Virus record (IMG/VR): IMGVR_UViG_3300027770_000038
Location: 1 to 64,000 of that record
Origin: a virus
Taxonomy: Duplodnaviria; Caudoviricetes
DNA length: 64,000 bases
Reading direction: 5' to 3' (one strand)
Of this stretch, positions 18,548-61,073 are shown in pieces. Position 1 is the first letter of the stretch. Each line of letters begins with the position of its first letter. The notes beneath the pieces were generated by a model, which ran no database searches, was not told the origin of the DNA, and saw nothing but the letters and a program-made list of their open reading frames with translations. The position numbers were made by a program, and so were the translations under genes.

Positions 18548-20755
18548 TTAGTTGAAGATTGACAGGATGGTTTTGTCTGTTTCAGGTTTATTTGCCCAGT
18601 CAAAGAAGCTAGTATCGACGAGCGAAAGTAACGGATATTTATTAAAGAAATTGTTTAAATTGTCAAATAGATTAACTTGCGTACCGGAAGAATAAGCTAA
18701 CAGAAATAAATTAACGCAATGAAGACTATTGAGAGCTTCATGAAGATTAATGAATGTTGTTTGCTTTCTGATGCTTATTATCTTTTCGTATTGTTTTAGG
18801 AAGTCTTGAATGTCTTGACTGTTAATAACTGTTTGAGAGTCCTTCTGGCGGCGAAATAATGCTACCGCTCCTCTTTGACAACAAGATGTCTCACTGCGAT
18901 TAGTTATTATGTAATTAATGAAATCATCTAACTGCCCTTTAGCCTTTAGGCCGTCAGCTACCGTCTTAATAATCCAATCTTTTAGTTCGATAAGATTAAT
19001 GTTGTTATTGATCTTCTTAGGAACTTCTTTAAAGCCGATAAAGTTTGCAGAGACATTAGCGAAACTACATATATCATTTAAACTTATAATCAAACGATCA
19101 AGCCCAACAGGCGGGTCAGAGACGTATTCAAATCGGTGAATCTTCATCCAAACGCCGGTATCGTTATTAAGGTCAACAACTACAGGATTCCAATGGCTAG
19201 AATTAGTATTGCATTTAATATTCTTGGTTAAATCTAAAGTAAAAGTATGCTTAAGATGTTTCTTGTTCCTAATAGAAGGAGTCTTAGCGCTGTGATTAAC
19301 AAGTCTAACAGGCACAGAAACCTCAATCTCAGAAAGCTTCTTGAAGATATAACCGTCAAGACCTCTCTTAGCTAAAGCTTTTTCCCAAAGCTCTTGATCT
19401 TGGACAGTAATGACATTAACAGTTTTATAGGACTTTTTGTTTACTATAACATCGATCATCCTCTTCTTGAGATATTTGCTTTCGCAATCATCAATGACAT
19501 TCAGGTGATCTTCTCCTGAAGATAGCTTAGTCTCTAAATAGAAGTTCACTCCTTTCCTAGAACGCCGCCCCGTAAAATAGTGCCTGATGACGGCGGGTTC
19601 ATGCCCGTCAGGCAGGTTCTCGTCTTGAGAAAAATGAAAATCTACATCAGGTTCAGAGACATCAAGCCCTTTCCAGTTACATTTTTTACCAAGGAAGCTA
19701 AAAGCATTACCGTGACTGAATAGATTACAAAAAGTCTCTTGAAAAAGTCTTTTGGCCTCAAAGATACTTGCAGCGTTTTCAATCTTGCCATTGATCTTTT
19801 CAATTAACTCAGAGAAGAAACCATCAAGCAGTTGAACAAGATTCTTCTTGGTGAAGTCAGTGTATTGAAGGTCTTCTCTAGAAGCAGAGACTTCAACAGT
19901 GCCAATATCAACATAAAAGATAAAATTATAAGCCAAAGACGGTGCGTAGCAATCTCTACCAACCTTTTCAGAGAATAAATTCTTAATCTCTTGAGACATT
20001 ATACTGCTATTGAAGGGATAAGCGACATTGCCCATAACGACCACTGATGGGAATGAGGTAGCGGAATACTGCTTATGAGAGAAATACTTCCAGTTGGTTC
20101 CCTCAATAGTAGCATTGCCAAGAGAGATTTCAGAAGCCTCAATCCCTCTGACCTCTACTTTGCTGCTCCAGAACTTGAAGAAATTCTTGATCTTCTCAGT
20201 AAAATCATAAATGTCTGCATACTTAACAGGAACGCAAATCTCAACGCCATTAGGCTCACTAGTCTCTTCCTCGTTCATCTTAGCGATCATGCCAATCTGA
20301 GAAGGATCAATGTAAGCATTGTAAGTGAACTTCTTACCGTTAACGTAAGAGTCGATGACGAAGTTGTCGCCATAAGCAAAAGCAGACTTGGAGCCAAGGC
20401 CAAGTTGCCCGATTAACTTATTAGACTTGCGTTTGGTAGATTCGCCATAGTTTGCATAAATGTCACGAATCTCTTCTTCGTTCAGACCATTGCCAAAGTC
20501 CCGTACCCTGAAGGTAGGGTCAAAAGAATTTGGGGCGGTGATGACGATTGCTTGGTCTTCTTTGCCAGCCTCGACGTTGGCATCGACAGCATTGGCGGAA
20601 TACTCTCTGACGACCGCAAGGATCTTGTCAGAATAGAGTTGGTTGCGTAAAACCCCAAAGATATGGGCTAGACCGTCCTGCTTGATGCCGAAAGATACGG
20701 ACTTGAAGTTTTCCGACAGCATCACAGAATTCTCGTTTTTCGGAGCAATTTGCAT
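18548..20755 (-). CDS. rIIA-like protein (GHKL ATPase N-terminus)
   Basis: LYSDKILAVVREYSANAVDA, RDFGNGL, YGESTK, G.LGLGSKSAFAY. Confidence 0.88.
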   Translation of the reverse strand: MQIAPKNENSVMLSENFKSVSFGIKQDGLAHIFGVLRNQLYSDKILAVVREYSANAVDANVEAGKEDQAIVITAPNSFDPTFRVRDFGNGLNEEEIRDIYANYGESTKRKSNKLIGQLGLGSKSAFAYGDNFVIDSYVNGKKFTYNAYIDPSQIGMIAKMNEEETSEPNGVEICVPVKYADIYDFTEKIKNFFKFWSSKVEVRGIEASEISLGNATIEGTNWKYFSHKQYSATSFPSVVVMGNVAYPFNSSIMSQEIKNLFSEKVGRDCYAPSLAYNFIFYVDIGTVEVSASREDLQYTDFTKKNLVQLLDGFFSELIEKINGKIENAASIFEAKRLFQETFCNLFSHGNAFSFLGKKCNWKGLDVSEPDVDFHFSQDENLPDGHEPAVIRHYFTGRRSRKGVNFYLETKLSSGEDHLNVIDDCESKYLKKRMIDVIVNKKSYKTVNVITVQDQELWEKALAKRGLDGYIFKKLSEIEVSVPVRLVNHSAKTPSIRNKKHLKHTFTLDLTKNIKCNTNSSHWNPVVVDLNNDTGVWMKIHRFEYVSDPPVGLDRLIISLNDICSFANVSANFIGFKEVPKKINNNINLIELKDWIIKTVADGLKAKGQLDDFINYIITNRSETSCCQRGAVALFRRQKDSQTVINSQDIQDFLKQYEKIISIRKQTTFINLHEALNSLHCVNLFLLAYSSGTQVNLFDNLNNFFNKYPLLSLVDTSFFDWANKPETDKTILSIFN

Positions 20756-21374: not shown

Positions 21375-21385
21375 AAAAATTAGGG

Positions 21386-21456
21386 AGCGAGTAGGTTGAA
21401 TCGAACATCCATGTCGAATTTGGAAAAATCGCGCTTTACCATTAAGCTATACTCGC
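21386..21456 (-). tRNA. tRNA-Gly(UCC), no encoded CCA
   Basis: GCGAGTA/TACTCGC acceptor, D-arm GCTT/AAGC, anticodon loop TT-TCC-AA, TTCGATT T-loop, U73; one mismatch each in anticodon and T stems. Confidence 0.85.
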
Positions 21457-30439: not shown

Positions 30440-30514
30440 TGGAGCCACGCTACGGAATCGAACCGTACTCTGAGGTTTACAAAACCCCTGCATCGCCGAC
30501 TATGCTTGCGCGGC
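30440..30514 (-). tRNA. tRNA-Thr(UGU) with encoded CCA
   Basis: GCCGCGC/GCGTGGC acceptor, GCAT/ATGC D-stem, GGGGT-TTTGTAA-ACCTC anticodon arm, TACGG-TTCGATT-CCGTA T-arm, TCCA end. Confidence 0.92.
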
Positions 30515-33684: not shown

Positions 33685-34344
33685 TTATTTGGCTAGTTCT
33701 GGCTCAACCTTGAACTCATAATGCATAAGCTCTTCATCGCCAGCAGTCCACTTGTGAGCTAGCCCTTCGCAAGAGAATTCTTGGCTGAAAGGTCTCCATG
33801 TTTTTGACTCTGGAGGTAACGATGATCCAATGAAAGCTCCTGAATCGCGCCAGACTATTCTATTGTTTGGTTGAGCGAACATCTGCCCGCCTTCACCCCA
33901 AAAAATATGAGCGCACTTGTGCCCGCTTGAGATTTCAGAGTATCCTAAATTATAATCCTCTCCATTGCACCAATCAATCGTAAAAGCGTACTTAGCTACA
34001 TGTTTGCTTTTATCTTTAAGCAGCATATAAGCTGAAGCGTTTTTAAGATAATCAAATCGGTGTACTGAAAAATAATAACTAAAACAATCCCAAAGTTGAA
34101 TCCAATGCAACTCAAAATTTGTTTGAGGCTCAAAAGTCTTTGATAAGTAATGAATTGGAACTCTAGCAAACTGCGCCCCGAATTCACTCATTACATTAAA
34201 TAGCAAGCATCTTCTAGAAATTGAAACCACTGAGAATATTTCTACAGGAATCCATTCTCCAGTTGTTCTTGGCAGTGAGTCGTTAAGGAACGAGGTATCT
34301 AAATATGCTGTTTGAGTTGGTATTGATGTAGTTAAATAAGCCAT
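33685..34344 (-). CDS. conserved hypothetical phage protein
   Basis: GA.FARVPIH, QLWDCFSY, FTIDW, HKCAH, AQPNNRI.W.D. Confidence 0.7.
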   Translation of the reverse strand: MAYLTTSIPTQTAYLDTSFLNDSLPRTTGEWIPVEIFSVVSISRRCLLFNVMSEFGAQFARVPIHYLSKTFEPQTNFELHWIQLWDCFSYYFSVHRFDYLKNASAYMLLKDKSKHVAKYAFTIDWCNGEDYNLGYSEISSGHKCAHIFWGEGGQMFAQPNNRIVWRDSGAFIGSSLPPESKTWRPFSQEFSCEGLAHKWTAGDEELMHYEFKVEPELAK

Positions 34345-35307: not shown

Positions 35308-35756
35308 GATTGTAAATGAGATTTGATCTTGGAGATGTTTTCTTCTTTTAGCTCTTGGTAATGAATTTTATAAAAATCAAATACTTCTTTGAATTTATTG
35401 CATTGCTCGTATTCTTTGATATAGAATACTCTTTGGATCTCATGAGCAACTATGTCCTTGGCGCAAGCAAAGCAAGGAGAAATTGTCAAGCATATGCTCT
35501 CTGCCTCTCCTTTCCTTATCAATGACAAGGCGTTAGTCTCCGCATGAATCATTATTTCTCGCTTCTTCGGACGATTCTCTTCCTTCTTCATCCACTCTTT
35601 GACAGCGAACCCTTTTTTCAATCCGTTGTAGCCGGTTGAAATGACCCTTCCCTCTTTATTTAGAATGCAAGCTCCGACTTTGGTGTGAGGGTCTTCGCTT
35701 CTAGACGAAGCAGCAAGGGCCATCATGCAACCATATTCGTGCCAAGAAAGTCTCAT
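35298..35756 (-). CDS. dCMP deaminase
   Basis: RSED..TKVGA, TGYNG, HAETNA, SPCFAC; start set to MRLSW. Confidence 0.9.
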   Translation of the reverse strand: MRLSWHEYGCMMALAASSRSEDPHTKVGACILNKEGRVISTGYNGLKKGFAVKEWMKKEENRPKKREIMIHAETNALSLIRKGEAESICLTISPCFACAKDIVAHEIQRVFYIKEYEQCNKFKEVFDFYKIHYQELKEENISKIKSHLQSWL

Positions 35757-35833
35757 GGATAATATTGTCGCAAATCGGCAAAGAAAAGTCAAGTTTATTT
35801 GGAGCTTTTTCTGGCATTCTTCTATTATTAAAT

Positions 35834-36250
35834 ATGACAATTTCAGATGCGTCTACAAAATTATATCAATGGTACTTTCAGAATGATAGTTTCTGTGAGA
35901 ACGATTTCACTAAACTGCTTACCATTTCAGAAAACCCAGAATCTGAAAGGGCTTGCGTGTTGTGTGCGCTTGAGGAATTTGAGAAGAACGGGATCGTAAA
36001 AAAGGCTAGTTTTAAAAATAATAATTATTGGATTCTCTCTAAGAAGTTTGACGCATACGAACAAAGCGTGACCATCTCTCCCAAAACTTCTTTTGTCATC
36101 TCGGAAGTAATCAATTCTTACTGCTCTCTGATTGAAAATGAATCTGAAAGATGCAACCCAATTTCGATCAGCGAGAAGGACATCAAGAACCTTCTGGTAA
36201 TTTTCAACGACTTGCGCGAAAAAACTTTTGACAAAACCAAGACCTCATGA
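35834..36250 (+). CDS. hypothetical protein, first gene of the plus-strand arm
   Basis: ORF from MTISDA. Confidence 0.6.
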   Translation: MTISDASTKLYQWYFQNDSFCENDFTKLLTISENPESERACVLCALEEFEKNGIVKKASFKNNNYWILSKKFDAYEQSVTISPKTSFVISEVINSYCSLIENESERCNPISISEKDIKNLLVIFNDLREKTFDKTKTS

Positions 36251-36257
36251 CTAGGAT
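36228..36257 (+). promoter_or_regulatory. sigma70-type promoter upstream of the structured ncRNA
   Basis: TTGACA (36228-33)-18 nt-TAGGAT (36252-57); the -10 overlaps the loop of ACCTCAT/ATGAGGT. Confidence 0.6.
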
Positions 36258-36262
36258 GAGGT

Positions 36263-36690
36263 AGTTCTTTATCTGGGTGAACAGCCTACTGGGGACATCC
36301 CAGTTCAAACGCATCAGAGACATCAGGCCCGTAAAAAGACCCTAGTCAACTGGATCTAAGAAATCCAACGCCATTTCGGGAAAAGGCGACGTTCCGCAAG
36401 GAGAAGACTTTGAAAAAGCTGAAACCTCATTTTTCTCAAAAGAAAAAGCTGGCAGTTCCGTCCTAAGAGAAATCCCACCCGCAAAGGTAAAGAACTTAAA
36501 CAAAGAGTTAGTCATTAGCTAGGCTCTCTTGAGAGGGCCGAAAATCTGATAAACAGACTGCGAAGGATTGAAATGGGTAACTCTTGATTATTTTGAAATC
36601 TCTATTTTAATTTAGAGATGACAAGCCTTTCCTATTTTAACTCAAAGAAAAATCATAAAGCTGGCAGTTCCTTTTACAAACCAGCCTTTC
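36263..36690 (+). ncRNA. unassigned multi-domain structured RNA (or transcription-linked origin)
   Basis: 460-nt gene-free gap; long-range helix 36263-36279/36476-36496, second domain 36503-36585, many hairpins, GNRA loop, G-U pairs favouring the + strand. Confidence 0.65.
36445..36671 (+). repeat. 15-nt direct repeat AAAGCTGGCAGTTCC, 2 copies
   Basis: exact copies at 36445-36459 and 36657-36671. Confidence 0.85.
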
Positions 36691-36709
36691 TTAAATACTA
36701 TATTTTACT

Positions 36710-37342
36710 ATGTCTAACCAGTTTCTAGGTATTGCAGGTGTTGCTACTGTCGGTAAGGATACTTACTATAAATTACTAAAAGAAATTTGCTTAGAAGACT
36801 TTGGAGTAAACGTAGTTAGATTTTCTTTGGCAGATTCTTTAAAAAAAGACTTGTTCTCTTTTATCTTAGAAAAATACAATGTTGATATTTTTAATTGCTC
36901 TACTGAAGACAAAAACAAAGTAAGACATGAGTTAGTAAATCACGCAAGGACAATGCGGCAAAATACTAAAGGTAGGTATTGGATAGAAAAGCTTCAGTCT
37001 GAAATCGAAGCTTATAAAAAATCTGAAAATTTTAAACAGTCAGATATTTTTTGTGTAACTGATATTAGACACTTCGAATATCCTAGCGATGAAGTCGTCT
37101 GGTTAAAGGAAGAAAATAAAGGGTTTTTAATTTATGTTGAAAAATTTTTTGAAGACGGTTCAGTTTGCGCTCCTGCAAACGATGATGAGAGAAGAAATGA
37201 TCCTTTTCTTAGAAAAAATGCTGATCATTCTCTTTGTTGGAGGCATGGATGGCCTGAAAAATATTTAAAAGATTTAGTCAAAAAGACCCTTGACATTTCT
37301 ATAAAAAAAGGTAAGCTTTATACACATGATAGAATCAACTGA
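36710..37342 (+). CDS. deoxynucleoside monophosphate kinase
   Basis: GIAGVATVGKDT P-loop, SLAD.LK, R..L, YWI, VTDIR...E. Confidence 0.78.
   Translation: MSNQFLGIAGVATVGKDTYYKLLKEICLEDFGVNVVRFSLADSLKKDLFSFILEKYNVDIFNCSTEDKNKVRHELVNHARTMRQNTKGRYWIEKLQSEIEAYKKSENFKQSDIFCVTDIRHFEYPSDEVVWLKEENKGFLIYVEKFFEDGSVCAPANDDERRNDPFLRKNADHSLCWRHGWPEKYLKDLVKKTLDISIKKGKLYTHDRIN
37290..37317 (+). promoter_or_regulatory. sigma70-type promoter, near-leaderless, for the sigma factor gene
   Basis: TTGACA-16 nt-TAAGCT, 8 nt before the ATG at 37326. Confidence 0.6.
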
Positions 37343-37913
37343 CAACGAACTTGTAACAAAGGTAAAACTTCATCAATGCAACCAATCATTAAAAACTCTT
37401 ATAGAAAGGCATTCTCCTCTTTGTTTTGACATCTTTAAGAAGTATAATAAAATTCTTCAAGAAAGGGGGATAAGCCCAGAAGATCTTGTCAATGAAAAAG
37501 ATTACATTATTTATAAATGTACTCTTAATTTTGATGAAAATCAGAACAGTAAGTTTTCGACTTGGCTGGCTAATCATGTTAAATACAAATGTTTAACAAA
37601 CATTACAAAACACAAATGGACAATTTCTCTTGATGATGAAAATCAAAAGACATTAGCAGCAAATCTCTGTCAGCAGTCGAATGATTTTGAAGAAAAAAAA
37701 GATTATATCTTTAATCTACTTTGTCAAATGAAAGACAAAAGACTTGAAAAGATAATCCTGTTAAGATATTACGGAGACAAGTCCTCTCGCAAATGGAAGA
37801 ATATATCAAAAGAACTTGGAGTCACATATCAGACAGCAATCACTTTGCACAAAAAAGCTCTTGAATTTTTAAAGACTAAAATTGAGAGCAAAGAGATGCA
37901 AGATTTTGTATAA
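37326..37913 (+). CDS. sigma70-family RNA polymerase sigma factor
   Basis: L..LIERH..L, FD....SKFSTWL (region 2), LRYY...WK.I.KELGVT.Q....L..KAL (region 4 HTH). Confidence 0.82.
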   Translation: MIESTDNELVTKVKLHQCNQSLKTLIERHSPLCFDIFKKYNKILQERGISPEDLVNEKDYIIYKCTLNFDENQNSKFSTWLANHVKYKCLTNITKHKWTISLDDENQKTLAANLCQQSNDFEEKKDYIFNLLCQMKDKRLEKIILLRYYGDKSSRKWKNISKELGVTYQTAITLHKKALEFLKTKIESKEMQDFV

Positions 37914-57351: not shown

Positions 57352-57743
57352 TGTCCATTCAACAAACAATTGTAGAAAAATTTGTCAGAAAAAACGAAGT
57401 AGACTGGGCTAGGGATATGAAGGCTGCTACGGCGCTTTTAAAAATTTTCCCTGAGCATGGGTTTTGGGAATGGCTTGAGCCGCACCCAACAGTTTCTAAT
57501 CTTGGATTTTTTCGGTCTAAAAAGAACTTAACAATACTAAAAGACAGATATTCCCTTTTCCTTCAACGGAAAGACCTCAAGGAGTCGAAAGAAAAGCTGA
57601 AAGAAAGCTTTGACTCAAAGGTCGCGACCAGCTATAATCAAGAGGACAGCAAAGTGGGCGAAGACATTCCTATCGTCAAAAAGCCCAGAACTTTAAAAGA
57701 ATTTCTTAATCATGGCAAAGCCCCCGAAACAACAGCAACCTGA
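57351..57743 (+). CDS. hypothetical protein
   Basis: 130-aa ORF directly upstream of the recA-like gene; ends KPRTLKEFL. Confidence 0.6.
   Translation: MSIQQTIVEKFVRKNEVDWARDMKAATALLKIFPEHGFWEWLEPHPTVSNLGFFRSKKNLTILKDRYSLFLQRKDLKESKEKLKESFDSKVATSYNQEDSKVGEDIPIVKKPRTLKEFLNHGKAPETTAT
57610..57638 (+). promoter_or_regulatory. sigma70-type promoter for the recombination/replication genes
   Basis: TTGACT-17 nt-TATAAT inside the upstream ORF. Confidence 0.7.
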
Positions 57744-58863
57744 AGAAAAAAACTCAAGCATTGGAGCTTCAAGCAGACTCCAATCTATTCTTAATCACAA
57801 AGATCACAAAGATGATCACTTTAATTTTGAAGAAGCAGTGACTTGGAAGATCTCTACTGGGAGCTTGCTTTTAGATGCTGCGGTAGGTGGAGGCATCACC
57901 CCTTCTCTTATCCGTCTTTGTGGACCAAATAATGAAGGCAAAACACCCCAAGCGATAGAAATTTGCAGAAATTTTCTTTTAGAAATCCCGAAAAGTAGAG
58001 TAGTCTGGGTCTTAGCAGAGGGTCGTCTCTCTAAGGAAAACAGAGAACGCTGCGGGATCAAGTTCGTCACCGATGCATCAGAATGGACTGACGGCTCAGT
58101 GTTTATCCTTGAATCTAATGTTTATGATTTAGTAATTGACGTTATTAAAGATCTTGTCCTTAATAATGAAGAAGATAATCGTTATTGTTTTGTTATTGAT
58201 TCTATGGACGGTCTTATCTTAAAGAGAGATAAGGATACAAGCCCAGCAGACGCGAGCAAGGTTGCCGGAACTCAAGTCATCAGCAAGAAGCTTCTACAAT
58301 CACTAAGTATTGGAATGTTTAAGCATGGTCATCTAATGATCGCGGTTAGCCAGATTACTTCTGAAATTAAAATCGATCCCTATGCTAAAAACGCTCCGAG
58401 AGGAGGAATGTTCAGCGGTGGAAATGCATTATTGCATTGGGCTGACTTTATCCTAGAGTATAGCACGACAGCAATGGGCGACTATATCCTTGACAACCCA
58501 GCAGGGAAGATGAATGATGGCAAGACTAAATCGATTGGTAAGTATTCCAAAGTAATGATCCAAAAATCTACCAGCGAAGCTACTCGCAAAAACATCGTTC
58601 AATATCCTATTAAATTTGGAAAAAAGCCTTCTGGCATCTGGGTTGAGTATGAGATTCTTGATTGCCTACTCATGTGGGATCTTGTCGTTGCAAAGGGGGC
58701 TTGGATTACGGTAGATGATTCTTTAGTTGAAGAACTTAAGAACGTTGGAATTGAAATGCCCAAGCAGCACCAAGGGAGAGAAAACTTCAGAAAATGGCTT
58801 GAAGAAAATGAACAGGCCACCAAATATCTTTTTGGCAAGCTAAAAGCTGTCCAATCAAAATGA
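57712..58863 (+). CDS. RecA/UvsX-like recombinase
   Basis: ISTGSL.LDAA.GGG, Walker A GPNNEGKT, VIDS, SQ, GGNAL.H.A, GAW. Confidence 0.88.
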   Translation: MAKPPKQQQPEEKNSSIGASSRLQSILNHKDHKDDHFNFEEAVTWKISTGSLLLDAAVGGGITPSLIRLCGPNNEGKTPQAIEICRNFLLEIPKSRVVWVLAEGRLSKENRERCGIKFVTDASEWTDGSVFILESNVYDLVIDVIKDLVLNNEEDNRYCFVIDSMDGLILKRDKDTSPADASKVAGTQVISKKLLQSLSIGMFKHGHLMIAVSQITSEIKIDPYAKNAPRGGMFSGGNALLHWADFILEYSTTAMGDYILDNPAGKMNDGKTKSIGKYSKVMIQKSTSEATRKNIVQYPIKFGKKPSGIWVEYEILDCLLMWDLVVAKGAWITVDDSLVEELKNVGIEMPKQHQGRENFRKWLEENEQATKYLFGKLKAVQSK

Positions 58864-59588: not shown

Positions 59589-61073
59589 ATGAAACTTTCC
59601 TCTATTAAGGTAGAGCAATCCTTGCTTGGTTCGCTCATTAAAAATTCAGAATCATTCTACGATATAGATCATTTTATATCAGAGATTGATTTTACAAACG
59701 ATGTAAACGGAACAATATATTCGATAATTCGCCAGATATGCAACGCTAAAGAAAAAATAGATAAAGTCATTCTGGCTCAGAAAATTCAGAATCTTGGCAT
59801 TTCTTTCCAAGAAGATCTTGACATATATGATTATATCGATTGTCTTTCTTTAACAGTTTCAAATAAAGATTCTGCTATTAAATACGCTCAAGAGTTAAAG
59901 CAGTTTTCTATTCGTCGTGATATAAAAGGCATGGCGCAAAGAATAATAGAAACTGTTTCTACCAATCCTGAGAAAAATGCCAGTCAAATCATAGCTGAAG
60001 TAGACTCTATATATGGCGAAAAGATTAATTCTTTTGATGCTACTGAAGAGATTAGAAATATCTTTGATGACATAGAGGTATTTATAGAAGAAAAAGGTAA
60101 TAATCCTCAAGAAGAATCAGGCATAGATTTGCATTATCCAGAGTTCGCAAGGCTTTATGGAGGCTTGAGAAACGGAAATGTTTATGCAATCGTCAGTCGC
60201 CCCGGTCAAGGCAAAAGCTCGTTCTTGGTTGAGATGTCTCTTGGAGCTTATTTAAAGAATAAAAAGGTTAGCGTCCTTTACCTTGATACAGAAATGTTTT
60301 CACAAGATGTGAAACTCCGTATTGCAGCAGCGAAAACTGGAGTGCCTTTCTGGTATATTGACACGGGAAACTGGCGTAAAGATCCTGAGATGGTTTTCAA
60401 AATCAGAGCTTTCTTAAAAGAGTTTAGCAAATATAACTATACTCATCATTGTGTTGGTAATAAAGGAATTGACGAGATTATATCTTTTATCCGTAGATGG
60501 TATTACAGTAAAGTTGGAAGAGGGAATCCTGCTCTTATTTGTTATGACTACGTCAAACTTACCGGAGAAAAGGTCGGCCAAAACTGGGCAGAGCATCAAG
60601 CCATTGGCGAAAAGATAGATAAACTTAAAAAGATTTCAGAAGAAATTAATGCCCCTCTATTCACTGCAATGCAAATGAATAGATCTGGTGAAAATTTTAA
60701 TAGAAATGCTGGAGACGTAACCGATGATAGTTCCGCAATCGCCTTGTCTGATCGGCTTCAATGGTTTGCCAGCTATGTTGCGATTTTCCGAAGAAAAACT
60801 CTTGACGAAATAGAGCGCGATACGCCAGACTTCGGCACACATAAATTGATAACTTTAAAGAGCCGCTTCCAAGGCAAAGATGCTGCTGGACATCAGGATC
60901 TTATGAGAAGGAGAAATGATCATGGCGATGAAAAATATGTTCAAAACTTTGTCAACTTTCAGATTAGTAATTTCAGCGTAGAAGAAAGGGGTTCCTTGGC
61001 TAACATTATTGAGAGAGAGCGTCAGACATTTTCATTGAATGATACCAATCCCAATGATGGTTCTTTGTTATGA
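59589..61073 (+). CDS. dnaB: replicative DNA helicase
   Basis: EQSLLG.L N-domain, SRPGQGKS Walker A, LDTEM, YDYV, Q.NR, K.R.G. Confidence 0.9.
   Translation: MKLSSIKVEQSLLGSLIKNSESFYDIDHFISEIDFTNDVNGTIYSIIRQICNAKEKIDKVILAQKIQNLGISFQEDLDIYDYIDCLSLTVSNKDSAIKYAQELKQFSIRRDIKGMAQRIIETVSTNPEKNASQIIAEVDSIYGEKINSFDATEEIRNIFDDIEVFIEEKGNNPQEESGIDLHYPEFARLYGGLRNGNVYAIVSRPGQGKSSFLVEMSLGAYLKNKKVSVLYLDTEMFSQDVKLRIAAAKTGVPFWYIDTGNWRKDPEMVFKIRAFLKEFSKYNYTHHCVGNKGIDEIISFIRRWYYSKVGRGNPALICYDYVKLTGEKVGQNWAEHQAIGEKIDKLKKISEEINAPLFTAMQMNRSGENFNRNAGDVTDDSSAIALSDRLQWFASYVAIFRRKTLDEIERDTPDFGTHKLITLKSRFQGKDAAGHQDLMRRRNDHGDEKYVQNFVNFQISNFSVEERGSLANIIERERQTFSLNDTNPNDGSLL

Follow-up and report, generated by a model that had tools for sequence, protein, structure and literature searches.

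The locus and its features

The stretch of DNA considered here, called the window below, comprises the 64,000 nucleotides (nt) at positions 1 to 64,000 of the IMG/VR record IMGVR_UViG_3300027770_000038, a virus of the class Caudoviricetes. Within it 459 nt separate two plus-strand open reading frames (ORFs), 35765-36250 and 36710-37342, and this gap holds short ORFs alone, of 36-57 amino acids (aa). We conclude with high confidence that the gap contains the gene of a structured phage RNA of a new class, with the fold described below. A first-pass annotation of the sequence had proposed a structured noncoding RNA on the plus strand of this ORF-free gap, a proposal borne out by the absence of any conserved ORF, by the promoter and by the covariation reported here. 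At the head of the rightward gene block the order is a small ORF with a winged-helix-like product, the RNA, a gene for a deoxynucleoside monophosphate (dNMP) kinase-like protein and a small sigma-like gene. Across lineages the RNA keeps its position between divergent operons, with a promoter before it and a conserved gene block after it; its protein-coding neighbour downstream varies among them, being the kinase-like gene, the sigma-like gene or another ORF.

The features of the locus are listed below. A module denotes a unit of hairpin, purine-rich linker and tail, which is present twice, once in the branch closed by helix P6 and once at the 3' end.

36228-36257, plus strand: sigma-70-type promoter of the RNA, TTGACA-18-TAGGAT, which agrees with the consensus at 10 of 12 positions and overlaps the last codons of the upstream ORF and the sequence just beyond.
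36263 to about 36672, plus strand: proposed RNA gene of about 410 nt (380-470 nt across lineages), its 5' end placed from the promoter and its 3' end approximate, just past tail 2.
36263-36279, plus strand: P1 (36263-74) and P1b (36275-79), the 5' strand of a 17-base-pair (bp) long-range closing helix that pairs with 36476-36496.
36284-36387, plus strand: core subdomain, supported by covariation, with P2 (36284-87/36384-87), the variable hairpin P2a (36288-36304), P3 (36328-31/36377-80) and the P5 hairpin (36351-67).
36327-36338 and 36346-36349, plus strand: the invariant GCCCGUAAAAAG and UCAA, respectively, within the core subdomain.
36388-36462, plus strand: second subdomain, with P6 (36388-91/36459-62), the P7 hairpin with a GCAA loop (36392-36403), the P8 hairpin (36430-47) and module 1.
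36445-36459, plus strand: tail 1, AAAGCTGGCAGTTCC, the 3' part of module 1 and an exact 15-nt direct repeat of 36657-71.
36476-36496, plus strand: 3' strand of the closing helix (P1b 36476-80, P1 36485-96), from the minimum free energy (MFE) fold and covariation.
36503-36585, plus strand: 3' domain D2, with D2-P1 (36503-10/36578-85), D2-P2 (36512-15/36573-76) and the hairpins D2-P3 (36522-39) and D2-P4 (36545-57).
36598-36619, plus strand: terminal hairpin ATCTCTA/TAGAGAT, seen in the main clade only, with no T-run directly after it and so not a canonical terminator.
36631-36671, plus strand: module 2, comprising the conserved CCUAUU... stretch, a small hairpin and tail 2 (36657-36671, AAAGCTGGCAGTTCC), invariant in the 13 sequences of alignment A1.
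36673-36701, plus strand: TTTACA-17-TACTAT, a promoter-like site of its own for the kinase-like gene that follows (ATG 36710); it bounds the RNA, lies outside it and is kept in the four main-clade members scanned.

Distribution and conservation

After removal of duplicates and chance matches, 45 distinct sequences of the element were collected, all of them from viral or metagenome contigs, and these fall into 14 clusters when a cluster is defined by at least 85% identity over at least 350 nt. The kinase-like neighbour led to 13 IMG/VR loci (protein identity 71-97%) whose intergenic DNA is 87-99% identical to that of the window, a far relative, L019, was found by nhmmer, and patterns drawn from the invariant core found 21 metagenome stretches and then 22 and 44 viral stretches. 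A survey of prokaryotes, with one genome for each of 185,579 species, gave 18 pattern matches, none of which is the element, and two nhmmer matches of 24-28 nt, those inspected lying in coding DNA. Among 50,697 records of cultured phages, blastn detected no copy of the element and tblastn no relative of two neighbouring proteins.

Compared with the window, five main-clade relatives have 89-95% identity in the RNA and 97-99% in its core (36318-36470), as against 77-87% in the upstream ORF and the kinase and sigma-like genes (the kinase gene of L035, at 92%, being the exception). Across clusters the neighbouring proteins share just 30-55% identity, while GCCCGUAAAAAG, UCAA and CGGG remain invariant. 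The alignments used below are A1, A2, A3 (20 sequences), A4 (15 sequences, one per lineage) and A5 (the upstream ORF).

Secondary structure and covariation

The MFE fold of 36255-36625 recovers nearly every helix of the first-pass annotation. A model of 81 proposed base pairs was compared with 500 shuffles and with slid controls. In A3, 84.5% of the cells are paired, against 73.7 +/- 0.6 in the shuffles, 47 of the 81 pairs have changed on both sides (31.8 +/- 2.8 shuffled), and the covariation score is 0.312 (0.166 shuffled; slid controls 0.086-0.106), none of the 500 shuffles reaching any of these values. The picture is the same when each lineage is represented once: 52 of the 81 pairs in A4 are changed on both sides as compared with 38.0 +/- 3.2 in the shuffles, 119 further pair types occur as compared with 106.3 +/- 4.6, and the covariation score is 0.344 as compared with 0.162 (slid controls 0.086-0.124), again with none of the 500 shuffles coming as high; all five measures lie above every shuffle. 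Compensatory change among homologues, which had been set beforehand as a test of the annotated structure, is abundant.

The best-supported helices are P1b, P2, P5, the D2 stem and D2-P4. All five pairs of P1b show changes on both sides, with 97.3% of cells paired and about eight different sequences that all pair. P2 has three of four pairs changed on both sides and 95% of cells paired, with all four pairs formed in 14 of 15 lineages by four different pair sets, and P5 has five of five pairs so changed (92.5% paired). The D2 stem, formed by D2-P1 and D2-P2, has both-side changes in nine of 11 pairs with 87.9% of cells paired, D2-P4 in four of four, and D2-P2 is built from nine pair sets, fully paired in 19 of 20 rows. 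P3 (CCCG 36328-31 with CGGG 36377-80) is invariant in all 15 lineages and is neither supported nor contradicted by covariation. P6 and P8 align less well in distant lineages, where P8 hairpins of other sequence are seen. The single-stranded parts are conserved as well: GCCCGUAAAAAG, UCAA and CGGG do not vary in A3, and the D2 junction is lined by the conserved strands AGCUAGGC and UGCGAAGGAYUGAA, of which AGCUAGGC and GCGAAGGAYUGAA are nearly invariant in the same alignment.

The helices that the annotation had drawn survive in large part. Its long-range helix between 36263-79 and 36476-96 is found in the MFE fold and covaries, as do ACTGGG/CCCAGT, GGAT/ATCC, TTCC-GCAA-GGAG and TTTTTCT/AGAAAAA in the 5' domain and AAGAGTTA/TAACTCTT, GGCTCTC/GAGGGCC and TCTG/CAGA in D2. 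Other pairings have to be redrawn. GCCT (36284-87), which had been joined to a nearer AGGC, pairs instead with AGGC at 36384-87; the proposed AGTC/GACT helix (36344-409) is kept with all four pairs in three of 15 lineages only; and CGCC/GGCG keeps three to four of its four pairs in 14 of 15 lineages but overlaps and competes with the better-supported P2. The terminal ATCTCTA/TAGAGAT hairpin holds in the MFE fold and in the main clade, but over all lineages its cells are paired in just 43.6% of cases. The element had also been closed too early, at 36620: conservation, and probably the RNA, continue to about 36672, invariance reaching 36671 in A1 and in A2.

That the plus strand is the one transcribed is indicated by the promoter and by the G-U pairs, which had been cited for the same strand before; D2-P2, for example, opens with a U-G pair in 13 of 15 lineages, which on the opposite strand would be C-A. 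One alternative is that there is no RNA gene at all, the conserved DNA being a small protein gene or being kept for some other reason. The minus strand of the gap does carry ORFs of 39, 57 and 42 aa, but the 57-aa frame shrinks to 25 aa already in a relative of the same clade, and no ORF within the element is conserved over 15 lineages, the longest one changing strand, frame and place each time. Substitutions, moreover, pair up across helices and are not spaced by three. A protein gene has negligible probability and can be regarded as excluded for practical purposes.

Twin modules with concerted change

A feature beyond those of the first-pass annotation is the presence of twin co-varying modules. 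The two tails of the window lie 212 nt apart, and an exact direct repeat of 11-18 nt, with copies about 180-280 nt apart, occurs in 15 of the 19 sequences examined, in 11 different forms. These forms share a frame of AAAG, four to six variable nucleotides and NAGUC, L078 and L080 being outliers with a purine-rich tail; the two copies differ at two positions in L074, and in L081 the module is reduced. Most lineages have a 6-9-nt insert in module 2 relative to module 1, by our reading of the alignment, which suggests that the duplication is old and that the copies evolved in concert. In one lineage, represented by L102 (10884-11358) and L116, both modules are gone from what is otherwise the same element, with the rest of the RNA kept. 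There a plain GC-rich hairpin stands in place of module 1 and the kinase-like ATG follows the terminal hairpin, so that these two loci form a natural deletion control.

Partners of the tails were sought inside and outside the RNA. Duplex scans and an exhaustive helix search (minimum 5 bp, 11 lineages) gave no internal complement at a conserved place, all matches being confined to single lineages. In L092 the tail finds a perfect complement in the CUUAUCC that precedes module 2, but L108 and L109 have the same stretch with different tails, so that this pairing does not covary. UUCCUA in L019 and UUCCUU in L078 can each pair with the tail of their own lineage only. In the MFE fold CAGUU of tail 1 is paired to AGCUG (36417-21), an interaction that holds in the main clade and L077, with four of five pairs in L044, and fails in L019, L074, L076 and L078. 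A near-palindrome within the tail, GCUG-N-CAGU, was noted by us in about half of the lineages only, and a 4-5-bp match between CAGUC of the tail and GACUG of D2 is too short to judge. Beyond the two copies per record, the tail motif does not recur in the window or in four partial phage records. Antisense copies at up to two mismatches (three for the 17-nt motif of L078) were likewise not found in the window and the partial records G001-G004, which are 27-63% complete, so that this absence is weak. The product of the upstream ORF, considered as a protein partner, finds no support: its putative recognition helix is acidic, and the ORF is missing next to the element in L074, L078 and L080 and present in the module-less L102. 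With both sites changing in concert and lost together, and with no partner found inside the RNA, the evidence points to a single external partner, recognised at both sites.

Invariant single-stranded nucleotides in multi-helix junctions (GCCCGUAAAAAG, UCAA and CGGG, with AGCUAGGC and GCGAAGGAYUGAA nearly so) and identical tails, each behind a hairpin, are also what one might see in a ribozyme or self-processing RNA, in which the junction nucleotides would form the active site and the tails would be twin processing or ligation sites that free or rearrange a segment of about 210 nt. No self-cleaving ribozyme or intron family of Rfam was matched, however, and the contigs of the four RNA-library runs described below contain no joints or rearranged forms; we consider catalysis most unlikely.

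Promoter, extent and transcription unit

TTGACA-18-TAGGAT is the best promoter-like site within 35500-37200 in a consensus scan. The annotation had placed the start near 36263 on the strength of this site, and the comparison of lineages agrees: 12 of the 15 lineage representatives have a pair of the form TTGAY / N15-19 / (T/G)AnnnN ahead of the element, and the TTGA is invariant in A2. As the -10 hexamer ends 5-6 nt ahead of P1, the RNA probably starts at the P1 strand. At the other end, seven of 17 sequences scanned, the four main-clade ones among them, have a promoter-like site past tail 2 that would serve the next gene, at distances that differ in the other lineages. In L078 two hairpins and a T-run terminator lie between tail 2 and the sigma-like ATG. 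A terminator-like hairpin whose 5' half is tail 2 itself is seen in L013 and in the window, where it has 5 bp only. In L108 a tRNA gene (L108:1310-1382, 71.6 bits) begins about 13 nt past tail 2, between the RNA and the kinase-like gene, and RNase P cleavage there would set the 3' end of the RNA in that lineage. The -10-like TACTAT (36696-36701) lies merely 8 nt before the kinase-like ATG at 36710, with no visible Shine-Dalgarno sequence, and L019 is arranged alike. Judging from this layout, the genes that follow the RNA may have leaderless or near-leaderless mRNAs.

Part of the stretch is contained in 18 RNA-library runs, in 17 of them at small shares of 0.07-0.18, and we draw no conclusion on habitat or abundance from these. 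Contigs overlap parts of the element in four of four runs examined, from four studies and including three (X2-X4) of those with small shares, which attests its presence in the libraries and not its transcription; the libraries of these contigs are labelled freshwater, lake and river. Positions 36713-37015 are uncovered by contigs in the four runs, and the contigs of runs X2 and X3 end at 36712 and 36702. These stops may reflect the 3' end of the RNA or strain variation in the kinase gene, between which contigs cannot tell.

The arrangement raises the possibility that the element is a cis-acting leader that controls the rightward operon through attenuation or processive antitermination. A BoxA-like octamer at its 5' end would load host Nus factors onto RNA polymerase as in the ribosomal RNA (rRNA) operons, P1 would later sequester it, and the region of module 2 would decide whether transcription terminates or continues into the kinase and sigma-like genes, thereby timing late expression. 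GUUCUUUA at 36264-71, in the 5' strand of P1, matches the first eight positions in a row, and so eight of the 10 specified ones, of the gamma-proteobacterial consensus GYTCTTTAANA as given in section 12 of 10.1101/091223. GUUCUUU is retained in 10 of 15 lineage representatives though other helices vary freely, the place directly behind the promoter and ahead of a conserved gene block is conserved, L078 has its hairpins and T-run before a sigma-like gene with no promoter in sight, and tail 2 contributes to the terminator-like hairpins of the window and L013. There is also a general likeness to the BoxA/Nus leaders of rRNA operons, lambdoid nut sites and the suhB leader, in that a promoter-proximal octamer fits the consensus, its strand later pairs with a distant 3' strand, and units of hairpin and linear motif occur twice. 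Known BoxA signals, however, are short and linear, whereas here 400 nt of structure are conserved, both modules lie on one transcript, and the downstream gene usually has its own promoter. The next-gene promoter-like sites noted above, seven in 17 sequences, and the tRNA that comes next in L108 speak against a leader; GYTCTTTR occurs 22 times in the window, which is no enrichment over the expected 15.6 +/- 3.7, and the octamer is missing in L044, L102 and L081 and has changed forms in L078, L080 and L108; and the BoxA consensus of gamma-proteobacteria may not be that of the host. An intricate conserved structure of about 400 nt also far exceeds what antitermination leaders are known to need. 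On balance we regard a leader function as unlikely, though it is the main rival reading.

The location invites a further reading. Between window positions 34000 and 38000 the genes change from the minus to the plus strand at the site of the RNA, and the cumulative GC skew bottoms out at this very point (-1.25 at 34-36 kb); such a minimum may mark an origin or be a mere effect of the change in coding strand. The element might be an origin of replication equipped with a structured RNA as primer or activator; its transcript would prime or open the origin between the gene blocks, and the twin motifs would be DNA-level iterons bound by a co-evolving phage initiator. Like the origin transcripts of T4 and RNA II of ColE1, it would be a promoter-driven noncoding transcript at a strand switch and skew minimum; the place between divergent operons is conserved, and the two identical motifs change together between lineages, as protein-binding sites would. 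On the other side, the skew minimum is confounded by the coding-strand switch, and there are two motif copies about 200 bp apart, with no tandem array of at least three iterons beside an AT-rich region found. Compensatory changes keep plus-strand G-U pairs over the whole 400 nt, a folding that a primer would not need, and L102 and L116 retain the RNA without either motif. Unlike the T4 and ColE1 transcripts, then, the element has deep covariation in both domains, invariant junctions and two motifs that are dispensable in these two loci. We judge an origin highly unlikely.

Comparison with known RNA families

The annotation had recognised no known family in the element, and this agrees with our searches. 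Across the whole window, the 4227 models of Rfam 15, among them those for tmRNA, RNase P, 6S RNA, introns, self-cleaving ribozymes and riboswitches, gave two tRNAs elsewhere and nothing else at the gathering threshold. Relaxing the cut-off to E<=10 in the region added seven scattered sub-threshold matches to unrelated eukaryotic families, the best with 18.8 bits against thresholds of at least 40. Inside the element of 12 divergent loci (nine searched at the gathering threshold, six at E<=1) there was no match. We found no description of the RNA in the literature, which could not be searched by sequence and whose supplements were outside our reach, so that a supplementary listing would have been missed. 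We rate the element as a new RNA class, as the annotation had suggested and as the compensatory changes and the lack of an Rfam match support; coarsely it belongs to a loose group of ornate phage RNAs, with no relation found at the level of families.

Within that group it most resembles the phage and prophage RNAs GOLLD and ROOL, which have recently been found to form RNA-only cages. All are unexplained, phage-encoded, several hundred nt long and built of multi-domain covarying structure. GOLLD and ROOL often lie beside tRNA genes, according to PMC12286853. The element, too, adjoins stable-RNA genes, namely a transfer-messenger RNA (tmRNA) gene in L019 and L050 and a tRNA gene in L108. All these shared traits characterise the loose group and neither of its two families. 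It differs in matching no Rfam 15 covariance model, among which we take GOLLD and ROOL to be represented, in its length of about 410 nt as against 659 nt and over 800 nt, in its fixed syntenic position, flanked by protein genes, within a single phage group, and in its twin co-varying tails, a trait that we have not seen described for GOLLD or ROOL.

Twin repeats around structured RNA have precedents of another kind. The immunity RNAs CI of P4 and c4 of P1/P7 are structured, processed RNAs with a similar direct repeat on either side in the same transcript, and the repeats co-vary among relatives. A segment of the small RNA can pair with both of those repeats, however, whereas the element has no tail complement at a fixed place in 11 lineages; it matches none of these RNAs in Rfam and is five times larger. 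CRISPR mini-arrays and RNA anti-CRISPR mimics have repeats of about 28-37 nt and spacers of about 30-40 nt. They were rejected as a model for the element, in which about 180-280 nt separate the modules and the "spacer" between them folds into a conserved domain.

A proposed trans-acting RNA with twin recognition tails

Of the roles that the annotation had offered, scaffold or decoy is the one we favour, over the ribozyme and the replication primer discussed above. With moderate confidence, we propose that the element gives rise to a stable RNA that acts in trans as a scaffold or decoy with twin recognition tails. Its own promoter, the frequent separate promoters of the next gene, the stable-RNA genes among its neighbours and a structural conservation typical of RNAs with a tertiary fold argue for this. 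What the data show is the gene with its strand, promoter, secondary structure and conservation, together with the twin modules and their concerted change; stability, action in trans and the binding role of the tails are inferences from these. The host sigma-70 RNA polymerase would transcribe the RNA from the conserved promoter. The 5' domain, closed by the 17-bp P1/P1b, presents one branch with the invariant GCCCGUAAAAAG...UCAA...CGGGA core (P2, P3, P5) and another with module 1 (P6-P8), and is followed by the junction domain D2 with its invariant junction strands, by the hairpin and by module 2. The invariant junctions may build a fixed tertiary fold, upon which the identical tails would serve as twin recognition sites for one lineage-specific partner, conceivably a dimeric or bivalent protein or a nucleic acid.

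Several observations weigh against this proposal. The folding energy is unremarkable (z -1.63 for the plus strand and -1.38 for the minus strand; another z is -0.70), and with z-scores so weak the case for the RNA rests on covariation and not on folding energy. The predicted unpaired probability of the tails is the average of the RNA (0.45 vs 0.45), no partner for them was found in our searches, and the first eight nucleotides of the RNA fit BoxA. Past tail 2 no clear terminator was found in the main clade (none in L010, the 5-bp hairpin only in the window), so that read-through into the kinase-sigma genes is possible and would fit a role in cis; likewise, the sigma-like gene of L078 begins 12 nt past the terminator with no recognisable promoter. 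The RNA-library evidence, finally, consists of contigs, which may also derive from DNA.

Extending the proposal of a trans-acting RNA, it is conceivable, if doubtful, that the tails are programmable "specifiers", in which a fixed AAAG...NAGUC frame surrounds four to six freely evolving bases, giving a conserved chassis two points of contact with a lineage-specific target. Nucleic acids of the host or the phage are candidates for this target, as are two copies of the RNA within a self-assembling multimer. Were the tails retargetable in this way, the element would be the first phage RNA class with a guide-like recognition element inside an ornate fold, and it may then serve as a tool.

Few large RNAs have a conserved tertiary architecture, and nearly all of these have proved to be ribozymes, riboswitches or cores of ribonucleoproteins. 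The present element is better conserved than the proteins around it across phage lineages whose proteins are 30-55% identical, and it has a fixed place beside nucleotide-metabolism and sigma-like genes of uncultured large T4-like phages. The twin tails provide an experimental handle that makes its function directly approachable.

Neighbouring genes and phage context

The upstream ORF had been listed from a TTG at 35765, which is probably too far 5'; homologues in A5 align from the ATG at 35834, the probable start, giving a gene at 35834-36250 on the plus strand. It adjoins the element in 10 of 13 lineages checked, the other three being L074, L078 and L080. No Pfam or PHROG family was matched by its product. 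The AlphaFold model (pLDDT 83.8) is winged-helix-like, and Foldseek matches in the PDB are weak, the best having E 0.014 and none reaching 0.001. The protein is acidic, and by our own reading so is its putative recognition helix.

The sigma-like gene (37326-37913, plus strand) encodes 195 aa with a weak match to Sigma70 region 2 (E 1.4e-5). It is kept two genes 3' of the RNA in every lineage with enough flank, and tblastn gave no match to its product in the 50,697 cultured-phage records. From its size and context, we presume that it may be a late sigma factor of the T4 gp55 type.

In one lineage a tmRNA gene lies directly upstream of the element (L019:3537-3953, 127.3 bits in Rfam; L050:1-154, 61.3 bits), in agreement with ARAGORN. 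The window has no tmRNA gene, and ARAGORN is blank in the region.

Genes of the rIIA (18548-20755, minus strand), UvsX (57712-58863, plus strand) and DnaB (59589-61073, plus strand) types identify the phage of the window as T4-like. Its rIIA-like protein is at best 28-35% identical to those of cultured phages, which places it in a deep uncultured lineage. The tRNA genes of the window, Gly-tcc (21384-21456) and Thr-tgt (30440-30514), are both on the minus strand.

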